A stretch of 51,497 nt of DNA. Origin: Candidatus Kaiserbacteria bacterium (GTDB taxonomy: Bacteria; Patescibacteriota; Minisyncoccia; Phycocordibacterales; UBA2100). Shown here piece after piece: positions 4,161-48,045 of the stretch; the stretch's first letter is position 1, and the number at the start of each line of letters is the position of its first letter. The position numbers were made by a program, and so were the translations under genes. The stretch lies in contig JACROD010000014.1 of assembly GCA_016214605.1 (NCBI GenBank), forward strand, positions 107,074 to 158,570, in the 5' to 3' direction. The notes below the pieces were generated by a model. The model saw nothing but the letters and a program-made list of their open reading frames with translations, did not search any database and was not told the origin of the DNA.

Positions 4161-5708
4161 TCAGTTGGCGGAGTACGCATCTTTCACAAACTGTACGAGC
4201 TTCGCTACATCGCGCTGCACGTCTTGCGAGCCGAGTACGATCACGACGATCTGACGTTCATGGCCGTCGACCGGTATTGAGAAGATCCCCGCGTATGTCT
4301 CGCCCGCCTCGTTGGTCTGACCTACTTTGCCGCCGACGAAGGTCTCAGGCGCTTTTTTGATGATATTGAAGTTGCTGAGCCCGGTAAAGGTCGGCGTACC
4401 GTATGCACTGTCGGCAAGGTCGCCTTTGGTGATGTCCAAGATAAAGCTTCGGTTTGCGTAGATATAACGCAGAAGCTTATAGAGGTCTTCCGGCGTCGAC
4501 ATGTCTTCCTTGGCGCCGGAAGGGTCGCTGAAGGTGGATTGTGTGAGGCCGATCGATTGCGCCTTGCGATCCATGGCCGCGATAAACGCGTTGCGTCCGC
4601 GTTCGGCGGCGAGCGTCTCGGCCGCTTCGTTGGAGGATTCTTGAAGCAAGAGGAAGAGGAGATCGTATGCCCGAATGTGTTCTCCGGGGTGCAGGCGTGG
4701 CACGGTCGTATACACGATCGCATCGCGCGGCACGGTGAGCTTCTTATCCAGATCGATGTACTCCGTCGCCACGAGCGCCGTTATGAGCTTGGTGATCGAG
4801 GCGATCGGTGCGGTGGTCGACGCATGGGAGCTTGCGAGCACGGTGCCGTTGTTCAGGTCGGCGAGGAGATATCCTTTTGCGGAGATCCGGGCAGGTTTTT
4901 TCTCCGGATAACTGAAACTGTCTTCTTGATAAGAGGTATTGAACACTACGACCGGCATGCCTACCTGCGCGAGCTTGTATACCTTTTCCGCGTCTTCCGT
5001 GGAAAGCCGGATACAGCCGCCCGAGTATGAGGTGGCGACTGGTGTACCGTCGTCGTAGTAGGGCCAACCGTGAATGAAGAAGTTGCCTTGGAATGCCAAG
5101 CTCCACGGCTGGTGGACGTGTCCGATGGACGAAAAGTGGTCTTCCTCGCGCCATTCGACTCGGTAGATACCGACGGGCGTTTCCCACCAGGAGCCGATCT
5201 TGCCTTTGGCGAGGATAGGCACGGTGAGCGCGAGCTGTCCGTCGGTATAGACGCTCATTTCCATCGCAGAGAGGTCCGCGCTGATGAACGATATTTTTTC
5301 GTCGATAAGGCGCAACTTGACGGACGTATAATAATGGGGATCAGAAAGCGCGGGCAGTGCGCCGTACGAGAGCGCGGGAGAGGTCGAAGCCATGCCTGCT
5401 TCCGGGATCGAAATGGAATACACGACAGGCGGTCGCATGTAGAGAAAGGTGAAGGATGCGAAGAAAGACAGCAGAAAAAGCCCGCCCATTACGGTGATGG
5501 GGGATGGTTTTTTACGCGGTGAACGTTTCGGGTCGGCGTGTTGCGGTGGCACGGGGGGAGAGGGGATCTTCATACCGCGCGACGCGAATATCGGATCAAT
5601 CGTCTCGCGATCCCATCCTTCGAGCAGGAGGACTTGATAGGCCTCAGTGTCCGGCACACCGCTTGCATGCAAGCGGTGGATAAAAGGATGTGGATCATTG
5701 CGCCTCAT
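4161..5708 (-). CDS. Membrane-anchored fusion protein: L,D-transpeptidase (YkuD) domain plus D-alanyl-D-alanine carboxypeptidase (peptidase S11) domain
   Basis: YkuD catalytic motif HGWP...SGGCIRL. S11 motifs SITK (SxxK), SSNEAA (SxN) and KVGQT (KTG-like). One TM segment after the N-terminal cytoplasmic part. Confidence 0.8.
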   Translation of the reverse strand: MRRNDPHPFIHRLHASGVPDTEAYQVLLLEGWDRETIDPIFASRGMKIPSPPVPPQHADPKRSPRKKPSPITVMGGLFLLSFFASFTFLYMRPPVVYSISIPEAGMASTSPALSYGALPALSDPHYYTSVKLRLIDEKISFISADLSAMEMSVYTDGQLALTVPILAKGKIGSWWETPVGIYRVEWREEDHFSSIGHVHQPWSLAFQGNFFIHGWPYYDDGTPVATSYSGGCIRLSTEDAEKVYKLAQVGMPVVVFNTSYQEDSFSYPEKKPARISAKGYLLADLNNGTVLASSHASTTAPIASITKLITALVATEYIDLDKKLTVPRDAIVYTTVPRLHPGEHIRAYDLLFLLLQESSNEAAETLAAERGRNAFIAAMDRKAQSIGLTQSTFSDPSGAKEDMSTPEDLYKLLRYIYANRSFILDITKGDLADSAYGTPTFTGLSNFNIIKKAPETFVGGKVGQTNEAGETYAGIFSIPVDGHERQIVVIVLGSQDVQRDVAKLVQFVKDAYSAN

Positions 5709-43036: not shown

Positions 43037-44616
43037 GGTGAGGGGAGTGAAATAGAACTGAAACCGTGCGCCTACAAGGAGTCGGAGCGGGCATTTATGT
43101 CCGTCACGGCGTGCCTATTGAAGAATGAGCCAACGAGTTGATGCGTACGGCGCGGCTAAGCCCTTTCGGGTGGAGCCATAGCGAAAGCGAGTGTGAATAG
43201 CGCGTTTGTCGTACGTATCAGACCCGAAGCCAGGTGAGCTACCCATGAGCAGGATGAAGTTTGTAGAGATACAGATGGAGGTCCGAACCCATAGATTGTG
43301 CAACATCTCGGGATGACTTGTGGGTTGGAGTGAAAAGCTTATCGAACCTGGTAATAGCTGGTTCTCTCCGAAAGAGCTTTCGGGCTTGCGTCGTGCGTTC
43401 CCTCTGGGGGTAGAGCACTGGAAGGTGTCGATAGGTCGCAAGACCACGACTCCTATCAAACTCCGAATACCAGAGGCCAGAGCACGGCAGTTAGACTACG
43501 GGGGCGAAGCTCCGTTGGTCAAAAGGGAAACAGCCCTAGATCGCCAGTTAAGGTCCCAAAATATATGCTAAGTGAACTTAAGGAGGTGAGATTTCTTAGA
43601 CAGTGAGGAGGTTGGCTTAGAAGCAGCCATCCTTTAAAGAAAGCGTAACAGCTCACTCACTCAGAGATCTTGCGCCACAAATGATCGGGTCTAAGCATAT
43701 TACCGAAGCTGCGGATTCGTGTACTTCATTGAGGATACAACTTCGATTGTATTCTCAATGAAGTACACGAGTGGTAGGAGAGCGTTCTGCACTGCGATGA
43801 AGTCCAAGGGGTGACCCACGATGGAGCGTGTAGAAGTGAAAATGTTGGCACGAGTAACCGCAATGCGAGTGAGATTCTCGCACGCCGAAAGAACAAGGTT
43901 TCCTTCGCAATGGAGATCATCGAAGGGTTAGTCGGGCCTAAGCCGATGGCGAACGCCGGAGGCGATGGACACATGGTTAATATTCCATGACCCGGCACTG
44001 ATGCGATGGAGGGACGGAATGCTGTACTGTACGCCCATTATTGGATTTGAGGTTCATGCCGTGAGGACTAGCGATAGGAAAATCCGTCGCGATATGTCCG
44101 AGCGGAGTGGAAATGAGGAGGCCTCGGCCGAATCAGATGTACAGGAGCGCGTTTTCAAGAAAAACTTCTAAGCATAATCAGTGTTGGACCGTACCGCAAA
44201 CCGACACAGGTGTTCAGGGCGAGTAGCCCAAGGCGAACGAGTGAGAGGTCCCCAAGGAACTCGGCAAAAAAGCGACCGTAACTTCGGGATAAGGTCTGCT
44301 CCTCTTTGAGGAGCCGCAGCTAAAGTTTCCCAACCAACTGTTTACCAAAAACACAGCTCCCTGCAAACTCGTAAGAGGAAGTATAGGGGGTGATGCCTGA
44401 CCAATGCCGGAAGGTCAAGTATGGGGGGTGTGCGCATCACATTGCATGTGATATGAGTTCACAGAAAACAGTTTACAGTTTACAGAAAATGCGACATCGC
44501 ATCCTTCTGTTTACTGTACACTGTCAACTGTAAACTACATCGCGCGCAGCGTGATGTGCATGCTGATCTATATAAGCCCCGGTCAATGTCGGCGATAACT
44601 ATAATCGTCCTAAGGT

Positions 44617-45179
44617 TCTGCTTCTCTCGCAAGAGGGAAGTGGAAGGACTGGGACGATTACCAGTTAGTAAAATTGGTACACAATACAAAATACCTAAAG
44701 TTGCCTCGTCACGCAGTAATGCATGACTGGTCCTAGAAAATAATACATGGCTATATGCTGGGAAGTTTGCGAAAGCAAACGATCAGCAGGGAAGACTCGG
44801 TACCACTTTGTCCTCAACGAAAAGTGGAGATAAGCATCATGAAAGTGCAGATAGGTTCGTCCAGCTCTGTCGAAATGACGTCTGATGAAGCAGCGCATGC
44901 AATGAAGGAGCATTTCGCAGCGCATGGAGTAATCCTCGAATACGTACGCATCGACGAAGATGGAGAAGTCCAATTCAAGATGCCCACGGGTTTCAAGGTT
45001 GTTCTTCGGCCAGGATTCGGCGGAGAGCACGAAATTCTATTGTGCTAGATAGAAAGTTCTTTAGTTTCAATATCTCCGGACATTGAGGCTAAAGTGGTGC
45101 CGAGAACCCTCAGAGACTACACGCCGTGCTCCCACGAAAGTGGGATGAAGATATAGTCCAAGACTTTAAAGGAGGTCAG
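44617..45179 (+). mobile_element. Group I intron at the 23S L1931-equivalent site
   Basis: Exon sequence ...cgtcctaaggt | agcgaaattccttgtc... is contiguous in E. coli. The 5' exon ends in U and the intron ends in G. Core motif gaagatatagtcc is present. Helix 44796-44809/45091-45104 closes the ORF loop. Confidence 0.8.
44839..45048 (+). CDS. Intron-encoded small ORF (69 aa) without a recognisable homing-endonuclease motif
   Basis: ggag lies 8 nt upstream of the ATG. MKVQIGSSSSVEMTSDEAAHAMKEHFAAHGVILEYVRIDEDGEVQFKMPTGFKVVLRPGFGGEHEILLC. Sits in a peripheral loop of the intron. Confidence 0.35.
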   Translation: MKVQIGSSSSVEMTSDEAAHAMKEHFAAHGVILEYVRIDEDGEVQFKMPTGFKVVLRPGFGGEHEILLC

Positions 45180-45902
45180 AGCGAAATTCCTTGTCTGGTA
45201 AGTTCAGACGCGCACGAATGGTATAATGAGTTGGGAACTGTCTCGGGGACTTGCTCGGTGAAAATACAAGGGCGGTGAAGATGCCGCCTTCCTGCAGCTA
45301 GACGAAAAGACCCCAGAAGCTTTACTGCAGCTTGATATTGGGGATACGGGTGCGATGCGTAGCATAGATGGGAGACTTTGAAGCCATGGCTTTGGTTGTG
45401 GTGGAGTCGCCAGTGCAATACCATCCTTCGTTTCTGTATCTTCTAACTTCTAGGGAGAAACCCTAGAAAGACAGTATCTGGTGGGCAGTTTGGGTGGGGC
45501 GCTCTCCTCCTAAAAAGTAACGGAGGAGCCTAAAGGTCAGCTAGGCGCGAATGGAAACCGTGCCGATAGTGTAATGGCACAAGCTGGCTTAACTGCGAGG
45601 CGTACTTGCCGAGCAGGCGCGAAAGCGGAGCATAGTGAACCGACCATTCGCATTAGATGCGGTGGAAGATTATCGGACAAAAGTTACTCTGGGGATAACA
45701 GGCTGGTTTCGCCTAAGAGTCCAAATCGACGGCGAAGTTCGGCACCTCGATGTCGGCTCATCTTATCCTGGGGCTGGAGAAGGTCCCAAGGGTTTGGCTG
45801 TTCGCCAATTAAAAAGGTACGTGAGCTGGGTTCAAACCGTCGTGAGACAGGTTGGTCTTAATCTGCTGCAGGCGTTGATTCTTGAGGAGATTTGTTTCTA
45901 GT

Positions 45903-46690
45903 AAAGTATTGCTACTTCAGGGAGAGATCCCTGATGACAATGCGGCTTATAACGGTGAAGTCTAATTCGCTTCCGATCCGAGAGTTTTATGCACGCTGGT
46001 CCGTGGCATAGAGCTCGCTTGAGGACCGGGTAAGTGATATGATAATACCGTGGGAAGTCGATCTAATGTTGATACAGCTTACATCGCGGGATTTCTTGAT
46101 GGTGATGGCAGTGTGATGTTGCAAGTAAAGTTGCGAGCCGACACAAAACGCGGCGCGCGATTTATGGCAACCATCTGCTTCTATCAGGATACCCGCCATG
46201 AGAAACCTCTCTTGTGGATACACAAACAATTGAAAGTCGGTTATGTCTCGCGTAGAAACGACGGCATGACCGAGCTGAGGATCAATGGATTCGCTCAAGT
46301 GCGGGAAATTCTTTCCGAACTAAAGCCATTCATCCGATTCAAAGCCAAGCAAACGGACGCGCTTATCAAAGCGTGTGCCTTGCTTGAAAGTAAATCAATC
46401 AGTTTGTTGTCAAAACAAGAGCTTCGGAAATTGGTAGATCTCGTCTTCGTGATACGAAACGAGAATTATGCAAGCCGAAGTACAGTGACTAAAGAAGAGT
46501 TGGATACAAGATTAGGTTTGACCCCGTAACGACTGTACACTCAGTGTACGACTCATGTGTAGAGGAATCAGTTCTTGCAACTGACTGCTCATATGGGTAA
46601 GATGCCGCGATCCTAATCCGCACAATCAGTTTTTGTTGCGCGGAAAGGATCAAGATATAGTCTGCGCTCCATGAAAGTGGGGAATGTGCG
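45903..46690 (+). mobile_element. Group I intron inside the sarcin-ricin loop of 23S rRNA
   Basis: Exons read ...gtttctagt | acgagaggaccgaaat..., i.e. AGU|ACGAGAGGACC. The 5' exon ends in U and the intron ends in G (46690). Core motif aagatatagtc at 46652-46662. Confidence 0.8.
46050..46529 (+). CDS. LAGLIDADG homing endonuclease, single-motif (homodimer-type), intron-encoded
   Basis: YIAGFLDGDGSVML motif near the N-terminus. 159 aa. GTG start. Confidence 0.85.
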   Translation: MGSRSNVDTAYIAGFLDGDGSVMLQVKLRADTKRGARFMATICFYQDTRHEKPLLWIHKQLKVGYVSRRNDGMTELRINGFAQVREILSELKPFIRFKAKQTDALIKACALLESKSISLLSKQELRKLVDLVFVIRNENYASRSTVTKEELDTRLGLTP

Positions 46691-46769
46691 ACGAGAGGAC
46701 CGAAATGAACTGACCTCTGGTCTGGGGGCTGTCACGCCAGTGGCACCGCCCCGTAGCTATGTCGGGAAA

Positions 46770-46802
<33 letters not shown>

Positions 46803-47051
46803 AACTCCAAGATAAGGAATCGTTTGAGGGCCGTGGGAGATGATCACGTTGATAGGCACTAGGTGGAAGCACAGCGATGTGTTGAGCCGAGGTGTACTAA
46901 TCCCCCGACAGAACTCTCGAAAGGAATTGTGAGAGTCGCGTAACGCTAAAGTTTGAATTTAATTCTTGCCTCGCCGAAGTCCGCAAGGACATAGGCGGGT
47001 TGTATATCGTTGTTCAGGTCATAAGCAGCAGAGAGATCATTTGAGCTCTCT

Positions 47052-47160
47052 GTGTTGGTGCTTCGTCGGAGGGGGTACACCCGTTCTCATTCCGAACACG
47101 GCAGTTAAGCCCTCCAGAGCCGATGGTAGTCGCAAGGCAAGAGTAGGTAGGCGCCAACAC
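47052..47160 (+). rRNA. rrf: 5S ribosomal RNA
   Basis: Helix I gtgttggtgc/gcgccaacac, ...ccgttctcattccgaacacggcagttaagc..., ...ccgatggtagt... Flanked by the processing stem gagctctctg/cagagagctc. Confidence 0.93.
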
Positions 47161-47175
47161 AGAGAGCTCAAATAC

Positions 47176-47228
47176 AAAACACCTCGTGAGATAGACAAAA
47201 ACTGTCACCTCACGAGGTGTTTTTGTTT
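47176..47228 (+). terminator. Terminator of the rRNA operon
   Basis: aaaacacctcgtgag ... ctcacgaggtgtttt followed by tgttt. Confidence 0.75.
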
Positions 47229-47262
47229 GGTGTCAATACAATCTCTGAGGTACAATCACCAT

Positions 47263-48045
47263 ATGTCATGGGCATCTCGACGTCGCGCTTTGTATATCAC
47301 TAGTATCTTCCTGTTTTTCTTTATCCTGATCGGTACGCCGATCGCGTACAAGATACTGAGTGTTCCCGAGACGTGCTTTGACGGTATCCAAAATCAGACA
47401 GAGACGGCGGTCGATAAGGGCGGTCCGTGCCTGCTTGTCGATGAACGCTACCTGCAACCGCATGCGATCATGTGGGCGCGCGGATTTCGGGTACGCGACG
47501 GCACCTATAACGCCGTCGCGTATATCCAAAATCCCAACGAAGGTGCGGGTGTCGAATCGGTGCCGTATCACTTCAAAATGTACGATGCGGATAACATCCT
47601 GGTCGCCGAACGCACCGGTACGATGTACATCATGCCGGGAGGCATCACGCCGGTCATTGAGTCGCGGATCGACACCGGTTATCGTATCGTCGCACATACC
47701 TATTTCGAATTCACTGCGCCGCTTGTATGGAAGCGTATGAAGAACAGGTCGACCGCGATCACTATCAACAACAAAGAAGTAATGCTGCGCGATGATCTCC
47801 CTCAGGTGACCGTGACCGCGCGCAATGAGTCTGTCGACACCCTCAACAAGGTCTCATTCGTAGCGGTGGTCTTCGACTCGGACGGCAATGCTTTTCAGGC
47901 TTCTGCGACGGCGATCGACCAGTTTGTCCCTGCGACCACGGAGAATCTCGTATTTACCTGGCCAGACCCGTTCACTTCTTCTATTGGTCGTGTTGATATA
48001 TTACCCGTCGTACCGCCGGTGCTTGCACCCGTGTCGGTGAAATGA
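47263..48045 (+). CDS. Hypothetical membrane-anchored protein (260 aa)
   Basis: Start trimmed to ATG 47263 because the longer ORF runs through the 5S gene and the terminator. TM segment ALYITSIFLFFFILIGTPIAY. tacaat -10 box upstream. Confidence 0.6.
   Translation: MSWASRRRALYITSIFLFFFILIGTPIAYKILSVPETCFDGIQNQTETAVDKGGPCLLVDERYLQPHAIMWARGFRVRDGTYNAVAYIQNPNEGAGVESVPYHFKMYDADNILVAERTGTMYIMPGGITPVIESRIDTGYRIVAHTYFEFTAPLVWKRMKNRSTAITINNKEVMLRDDLPQVTVTARNESVDTLNKVSFVAVVFDSDGNAFQASATAIDQFVPATTENLVFTWPDPFTSSIGRVDILPVVPPVLAPVSVK

Follow-up and report, generated by a model that had tools for sequence, protein, structure and literature searches.

The window analysed here, a stretch of 51,497 nucleotides (nt) from a Candidatus Kaiserbacteria genome (GCA_016214605.1, contig JACROD010000014.1, positions 107,074 to 158,570 of the forward strand), carries a 23S rRNA gene in which a 788-nt insert (window 45903-46690, plus strand) separates the positions corresponding to Escherichia coli U2656 and A2657, i.e., within the bulged-G motif of the sarcin-ricin loop (SRL). 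This insert is very probably a mobile IA-type group I intron that contains a gene for an I-CreI-type homing endonuclease. Judged by its sequence, it is a well-preserved and probably active member of a large family of introns found at the same site, hereafter L2656, throughout the candidate phyla radiation (CPR).

The original prediction had placed the insertion between U2656 and A2657, give or take 1 nt, and had proposed alignment to a reference 23S rRNA. BLASTN comparison with E. coli rrlH (L001:260-3163) matches E. coli positions 1932-2630 to window 45180-45877 and positions 2657-2884 to 46691-46901, so that both boundaries fall inside the SRL. The window reads ...UUUCUAGU(45902)|AAAGUAUUGCUAC...GUGCG(46690)|ACGAGAGGACCG, or in longer context ...GUUUCUAGU(45902)|AAAGUAUUGCUAC...GAAUGUGCG(46690)|ACGAGAGGACCGAAAUG, and intron-less SRL rDNA reads TGAGGAGATTTGTTTCTAGT|ACGAGAGGACCGAAATGAAC across the insertion point. 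The insert parts A2654-G2655-U2656 from A2657-C2667, beside the GAGA tetraloop, and joining of the exons regenerates AGUACGAGAGGACC, which is E. coli 23S 2654-2667, i.e., the conserved SRL sequence, as had been claimed. Because an A is shared at the boundary, the insert could by sequence alone be 45903-46690 or 45904-46691; only the former ends in G and at the same time puts a U.G pair ahead of the 5' splice site, and the intron of a relative (L029) begins with G (UAGU|GAAGAUUCGCUAC; GAAG..), compensated by a U-to-C change in P1. These two observations settle the insertion point as U2656|A2657. The junctions are not a product of mis-assembly, since a public groundwater run contains a DNA contig with 100% identity to window 45829-46720, which spans both of them, and since an intron is present at the identical site in 88 independent genomes.

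The extent of this family was assessed by scanning GTDB, each species being represented by one genome, for GATATAGTC-N(12-42)-ACGAGAGGACC, i.e., the group I S element shortly upstream of the 3' half of the SRL. At least 120 species-level loci have this L2656 signature, nearly all labelled CPR or Patescibacteria, and the 88 introns are those among them for which both boundaries could be located. All 88 are preceded by ...AGU and end in G before ACGAGAGG. By length they comprise 11 copies lacking the open reading frame (ORF; 279-364 nt), 11 intermediates and 66 full-length introns (735-889 nt), about 60 of which keep an open frame of at least 150 codons with the LAGLIDADG motif, and four of the intermediates have lost all but an N- or C-terminal part of the endonuclease gene. 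The coexistence of ORF-less, fragmentary and full copies is what the decay cycle of homing endonuclease genes leads one to expect.

The secondary structure, including the P3/P7 pseudoknot, was counted on a MAFFT alignment of the 66 full-length introns (Table 1). Paired cells amount to 90.8%, as opposed to 35-46% when the partners are slid by 1-3 columns; 43 of the 61 pairs change on both sides, and the covariation score is 0.387 versus 0.07-0.11 for slid partners, none of 500 shuffles reaching any of the five measures used. Covariation thus supports a core made of P3-P4-P6 and P7-P3-P8 with the P3/P7 pseudoknot, and the near-invariant helices P1, P4, P6 and P7 are 98-100% paired. In P4, the ORF-less relatives L015 and L095 carry the compensated pair of strands CGAUG/UAUCG. 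The pair at the 5' splice site is the U45902.G45911 wobble, conserved as U.G in 66/66 sequences, and the last intron nucleotide is G in 88/88 introns. The R and S elements, GUAACGACU (46526-34) and AAGAUAUAGUC (46652-62), are invariant across the family; the J8/7-P7 motif AAGATATAGTC (46652-46662) has two occurrences in the window, one per 23S intron, against a chance expectation of 0.02. The identification as a group I intron, which had originally relied on the U at the 5' splice site, the terminal G and a J8/7-P7-like motif, is therefore confirmed in each of these features. G46531-C46662 is the pair that we take to bind guanosine, by analogy with Tetrahymena G264-C311.

This fold is consistent with other analyses. 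RNAalifold, run on the ORF-deleted alignment, recovers P1, P2, P3, P4, P6, P8 and P9 and cannot give the P7 pseudoknot. The search with Rfam group I models suggested at the outset gives significant, sub-threshold matches to Intron_gpI (RF00028): the alignment of the ORF-less relative L057 independently assigns the same P3, P4, P6, P7, P8 and P9, with a large insertion at the place of P7.1/P7.2, and a permissive search aligns the window intron in J8/7-P7'-P9 only, its 5' half being mis-aligned into the ORF because the latter splits the core. The presence of two hairpins, P7.1 and P7.2, between the 5' strand of P7 and the 3' strand of P3 assigns the intron to the IA type; both hairpins covary, in a region where the alignment is ragged.

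Table 1. Features of the 23S rRNA locus and of the L2656 intron, in window coordinates, with the evidence for each.
Feature	Position	Strand	Evidence
23S rRNA gene (alignable part), with two group I introns and two expansion inserts	42406..46901	+	Rfam LSU_rRNA_bacteria 2111 bits; BLASTN to E. coli position 2884
5' exon end, A2654 G2655 U2656 = 5' half of SRL bulged-G motif	45900..45902	+	Sequence, BLASTN
Group I intron, 788 nt, site L2656	45903..46690	+	BLASTN, Rfam, relatives, covariation
P1: exon UAGU and intron AA with internal guide UUGCUA	45899-45904 with 45909-45914	+	99% of cells paired
P2 hairpin, 6 bp, GAGA loop	45918..45933	+	6/6 pairs change on both sides, 99.5% paired
P3 5' strand GCGGC, partner 46604-46608	45942..45946	+	4/5 pairs covary, 95% paired
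P4 5' strand CGGUG, partner UACCG 46046-46050	45953..45957	+	98.5% paired; Rfam alignment agrees
P5 extension, ~88 nt, with conserved CUUGAGGACC and GGUCC elements	45958..46045	+	Minimum free energy fold only
Homing endonuclease gene, 159 amino acids, single LAGLIDADG motif, I-CreI-like, in P6 loop	46050..46529	+	Pfam, phmmer, AlphaFold2/Foldseek, ORF-less relatives
P6 5' strand GGG-AA-GUC, partner GACCCC 46520-46525	46052..46059	+	99% paired; Rfam alignment agrees
J6/7 (GUAA) and P7 5' strand A-[C bulge]-GACU, C46530 bulged	46526..46534	+	P7 invariant, 100% paired
P7.1 hairpin	46535..46549	+	Covaries, alignment ragged; covarying hairpins visible in ORF-less set
P7.2: 8-bp outer stem 46552-59/46590-97, inner hairpin 46569-46583	46552..46597	+	8/8 pairs change on both sides, 72% paired; fold
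P3 3' strand GCCGC	46604..46608	+	Covariation count
P8 hairpin	46609..46651	+	4/5 pairs covary; fold
J8/7 AAGAUAU (46652-58) and P7 3' strand AGUCU (46659-63) = group I S element	46652..46663	+	Rfam, covariation, motif count
P9.0 (46664-66/46687-89) around P9 hairpin (46667-82, GAAA loop)	46664..46689	+	P9.0 3/3, P9 5/6 pairs covary
Terminal guanosine, omega-G	46690	+	G in 88/88 introns at the site
3' exon start ACGAGAGGACC = A2657-C2667, with GAGA tetraloop (target of ricin and sarcin)	46691..46701	+	Sequence, BLASTN
5S rRNA gene	47054-47159		Rfam

The intron ORF matches Pfam LAGLIDADG_1 (PF00961; E 2.7e-8), in agreement with its initial description as a single-motif LAGLIDADG ORF of 159 amino acids. 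ORF-less copies have a short hairpin between GUGGGAAGUC and UUGACCCCGUAACGACU, the tip of which the ORF replaces; this hairpin is P6, and the ORF therefore sits in P6. No start codon other than GUG 46050 is possible ahead of the LAGLIDADG helix. This GUG lies in the 3' strand of P4 and the P4-P6 junction, the last codons (...GGU UUG ACC CCG UAA) form the 3' strand of P6, and the UAA stop lies in J6/7; coding and catalytic functions consequently overlap at both ends of the ORF. Searched with phmmer against PDB sequences, the protein matches I-CreI, I-MsoI and I-CvuI over its whole length (E 1e-10 to 1e-12). Its motif is YIAGFLDGDG; conservation extends to the Asp of this motif and to the aligned counterparts of I-CreI Q47 and K98. 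The AlphaFold2 model (predicted local distance difference test 91.5) has the alpha-beta-beta-alpha-beta-beta-alpha core (H-E-E-H-E-E-H) and is superposed by Foldseek on I-CreI at a template modelling score of 0.84-0.89 and a root mean square deviation of 1.8 A, supporting an I-CreI-type fold. More than 3000 homologues of the protein exist, many of exactly 159 amino acids, the named ones being from Kaiserbacteria, Pacebacteria and similar groups and the nearest labelled Kaiserbacteria, Paceibacteria and Patescibacteria.

RNA contigs were available from three groundwater metatranscriptomes (X3, X4 and X6), of a study other than that of the DNA. At 92% likeness, 2-4 contigs per run have the joint 45902>46691, skipping 788 nt, and intron depth is zero. 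When 99% likeness is required, the variable flanks 45845-45887 and 46695-46768 have perfectly matching RNA contigs at depths of about 1e3-1e4, intron depth again being 0, and one RNA contig passes from A45903 straight into CGAGAGGACCGAA. Across the 5' junction, the DNA run offers a single perfect match, namely the contig that carries the intron (depth 4.3). The organism-specific 23S expansion was well covered in none of the RNA runs (best share 0.29), and the groundwater metatranscriptomes matched only conserved segments of a New Zealand groundwater genome (L050). The pattern is the one predicted by splicing with ligation, and the intron-free, ligated RNA contigs support exact splicing of this kind in a way that is not specific to this organism.

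By analogy with group I introns, splicing would begin with pairing of the internal guide GCUA with the exon end UAGU in P1, placing U2656 in the U.G wobble. An external guanosine in the P7 pocket would then attack after U2656, the terminal G46690, positioned by P9.0, would take the guanosine's place, and the freed 5' exon would attack after G46690, ligating the exons and recreating AGUACGAGAGGACC; EF-Tu and EF-G could dock only once the SRL is recreated. The 159-amino-acid protein, predicted to act as a homodimer as its family does, would cut intron-less 23S rDNA at the SRL-coding sequence, and repair from an intron-bearing copy would spread the element (homing). Translation and ribozyme folding would be mutually exclusive in any one RNA molecule, because the start and stop codons lie in the core.

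Several observations weigh against this interpretation. The intron occurs in no indexed RNA run, so that neither precursor nor excised form is seen. Given the shortness of the RNA contigs (35-90 nt) and their origin in another study, an intron-less sister population or other intron-less relatives could be the source of the ligated RNA; the DNA run also contains one contig of an intron-less relative, with 2 mismatches and the same joint. At the Rfam gathering threshold no intron is found in the window: the Intron_gpI match of the window intron (20.4 bits, E 0.009) and those of two ORF-less relatives (33.2 and 41.1 bits, E 6.5e-7 and 2.4e-9) are below the 50-bit cut-off. The consensus fold of the alignment gave no pairing for the P5 extension, and no P10, in which the 3' exon would pair with the P1 loop, is conserved across relatives. 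Finally, the palindromy of the 22-bp target is weak (at best 5/11 positions), which is low for a homodimeric enzyme and uninformative.

If the insert were instead an intervening sequence (IVS) cut out by RNase III-type processing and never followed by ligation, mature 23S rRNA would be in pieces, broken at the SRL. Bacterial 23S genes with fragmenting IVSs are known, short non-intron inserts are common in CPR (PMC11270868), and the RNA evidence for ligation is not specific to this organism. Such a sequence would nevertheless not explain a complete, covariation-supported group I core with the U.G pair, P9.0 and omega-G, or RNA contigs in which the SRL runs on across the junction. Ribosomes lose their activity when the SRL is nicked just once, as by alpha-sarcin, and known IVS sites are to our knowledge at the tips of helices, not in universally conserved loops; both points further count against an IVS, which we regard as very improbable. 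Retention of the intron in mature rRNA has a precedent in the unspliced 23S group I intron of Simkania at L1931 (Everett et al. 1999, as cited in PMC11270868). Here, however, RNA depth is 0 across all 788 nt as opposed to 1e3-1e4 on perfectly matching flanks, and 788 nt within the factor-binding loop should abolish docking of EF-G and EF-Tu, making retention extremely improbable.

Another possibility concerns the role of the protein: the ribozyme may need it as a maturase, or need host factors, and endonuclease cleavage may be lost. LAGLIDADG proteins can serve as maturases (PMC11270868), and the overlap of the ORF with the core at both ends, the weak P10 pairing and the poorly palindromic target would all be in line with such a dependence or loss. 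Yet the catalytic Asp, Gln and Lys are conserved, and ORF-less copies with an intact core persist in 11 genomes, which excludes dependence of splicing on a protein from the same intron. We consider this alternative unlikely, and retain a mobile intron with a homing endonuclease as the best explanation.

Regarding the origin of the L2656 lineage, the nearest proteins from other sites among the listed CPR loci are those at L2593 (46-98 bits), followed by those at about L2533 (37-45 bits); proteins at L1917-L1951 are distant (at most 24 bits) and those at about L2260 and L2500 unrelated. As L2593 proteins are the nearest and L2593 introns also have a short P2 and P7.1/P7.2, it is plausible from these likenesses that the L2593 and L2656 elements share an ancestor. 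It can further be imagined that the L2656 lineage arose in CPR by retargeting of an L2593-type element to the SRL and that its splicing now serves as a checkpoint of ribosome activation, a combination that we hold to be quite improbable. Were it true, intron removal would, since the intron divides the very loop at which the factors dock, be an obligatory and possibly regulated last step, keeping new large subunits translationally silent until then, in bacteria whose rRNA operon is usually the only one they have.

Some members of the family depart from the common pattern. The L2656 intron of a Nomurabacteria genome (L031:1701-2609; 889 nt) has another insert in place of the LAGLIDADG gene, which lacks the motif, does not align to the other ORFs and may be replaced or unrelated cargo. 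Contigs with an L2656 intron also bear the submitter labels Elusimicrobiota, Gammaproteobacteria, WS2 and Nanoarchaeota (L019, L060, L081 and L123, respectively). A transfer between domains, considered for the homologue P0087 of a 'Nanoarchaeota archaeon', was rejected, its contig having a bacterial-type large subunit (LSU) rRNA and 5S rRNA, as Rfam also reports for L123; the Nanoarchaeota label is thus probably due to mis-binning of a CPR contig. Many CPR 23S genes hold several introns at once, for instance L002 (Kaiserbacteria JACQKD010000008), the introns of which lie at about L1923, about L2449 and L2656 and all contain a LAGLIDADG ORF. In L095 (about position 5200), an intron near L2585 has the GGCUUAUAACGGUG P3-J3/4-P4 motif in common with the L2656 family, a similarity that hints at related ribozyme cores at different sites.

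The remainder of the window locus shows further departures from E. coli. A second group I intron of 563 nt (44617-45179) occupies the classical site L1931 (...CCUAAGGU|...G|AGCGAAAUUCC) and is recognised by Rfam Intron_gpI in an alignment that includes P3-P8 (25.2 bits). A LAGLIDADG ORF is absent; a 97-amino-acid ORF (44755-45048) has no Pfam match, and a 12-amino-acid tblastn trace of a relative's endonuclease is the sole remnant. Upstream of it, 44427-44560 contains about 130 nt in excess of E. coli 1863-1889 (helix 68 region), with a long inverted repeat and repeated ACAGTTTACAG, for which Rfam gives only a spurious microRNA-hairpin match; these nucleotides represent an expansion segment or else an insert of the IVS type. 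In 42673-42972, 23S domain I exceeds E. coli 270-422 by about 150 nt, to which an insertion of 94 nt in the Rfam alignment contributes; this is another CPR-type expansion or insert. No 16S rRNA or tRNA gene was found in the 42 kb upstream of the 23S gene (window 1-42400) or between the 23S and 5S genes, and the 23S-5S pair appears to be unlinked from 16S. A 359-amino-acid ORF with a TTG start (46966-48045) overlaps the whole 5S gene; its N-terminal part is probably not real, the true start more likely being downstream of 5S.

The intron also affects how the locus is annotated. The Rfam LSU hit covers model positions 1-2925 and ends at 45932, the last ~270 model positions, from the SRL on, being squeezed into ~30 nt of intron; this end is an artefact of the intron, the alignable gene ending at 46901. 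Automatic annotation would trim the 23S gene by ~970 nt, losing the 3' half of the SRL and domain VI, and calls the product of the intron ORF hypothetical.

Few RNA elements are as conserved and as fragile as the SRL, and toxins kill by touching a single one of its nucleotides. The presence of a mobile intron there in at least 120 species-level genomes illustrates how far homing endonucleases exploit invariant sequence, and implies that no large subunit of a carrier cell can function unless the ribozyme reacts accurately. The family also represents a set of natural I-CreI-like enzymes with a predicted new 22-bp specificity. The phenomenon itself has already been published for CPR, and the window instance mainly adds detail.

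A survey of 348 CPR 23S genes (Tsurumaki et al. 2024, J Bacteriol; PMC11270868) found inserts in 82% of them and defined the hot-spots 23IS1-14; LAGLIDADG_1 proteins are mostly at positions 1917, 1931, 1952, 2593, 2604 and 2657, and group I introns at 23IS9, 10, 11, 13 and 14 were previously unreported in known bacteria. Hot-spot 23IS14, at position 2657 of CPR 23S rRNA, shares host clade, gene, position, a predominance of LAGLIDADG_1 ORFs and group-I-like character by Rfam with the window element, which is a further member. The CPR context initially proposed for such introns is thereby borne out; the statement that the site is not a classical LSU one is fair, and is qualified by the earlier cataloguing of position 2657, which makes the novelty smaller than first implied (PMC11270868). 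Among the openly searchable papers, none names an intron L2656 or L2657 and none connects the sarcin-ricin loop with homing endonucleases. The same survey characterised I-ShaI, a CPR 23S LAGLIDADG enzyme resembling I-CeuI that cuts its own site and forms dimers (PMC11270868), presumably from a site other than 2657. Inserts in that study were placed by comparison with E. coli only, the stated boundaries not being splice sites, and it gives no exact junction, secondary structure or RNA data for 23IS14 and does not mention the SRL (PMC11270868). The present analysis adds the exact junction U2656|A2657, the covariation-backed IA-type fold, the location of the ORF in P6 with core nucleotides serving as its start and stop codons, a connection with the L2593/I-CreI lineage, and RNA contigs that are supportive without being specific to the organism.

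The closest known systems are the L2593 introns of chloroplasts, cyanobacteria and CPR, which encode endonucleases of the I-CreI, I-MsoI and I-CvuI type and have the short P2 and P7.1/P7.2 also found here (PMC1995217). Their endonucleases, with a single motif and about 160 amino acids, are the closest solved structures, and all three solved relatives are from L2593 introns. In contrast, L2656 lies 63 nt further downstream, in helix 95 (the SRL) rather than the helix 92/93 region, the target DNA is different, and the window protein is only about 25% identical to I-CreI. Bacterial endonuclease-bearing introns compiled by Haugen et al. 2007 are at L1917, L1931, L1951 and L2593 only (PMC1995217). 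Classical 23S introns, i.e., those of Thermotoga and Simkania (L1931), Coxiella (L1917/L1951) and Synechococcus (L1917/L1931/L2593), resemble the window element in combining a group I ribozyme with a LAGLIDADG gene in a universally conserved 23S region, and in classical rDNA introns too the ORF can extend into the ribozyme core; they differ in their sites, L2656 being absent from that compilation (PMC1995217).

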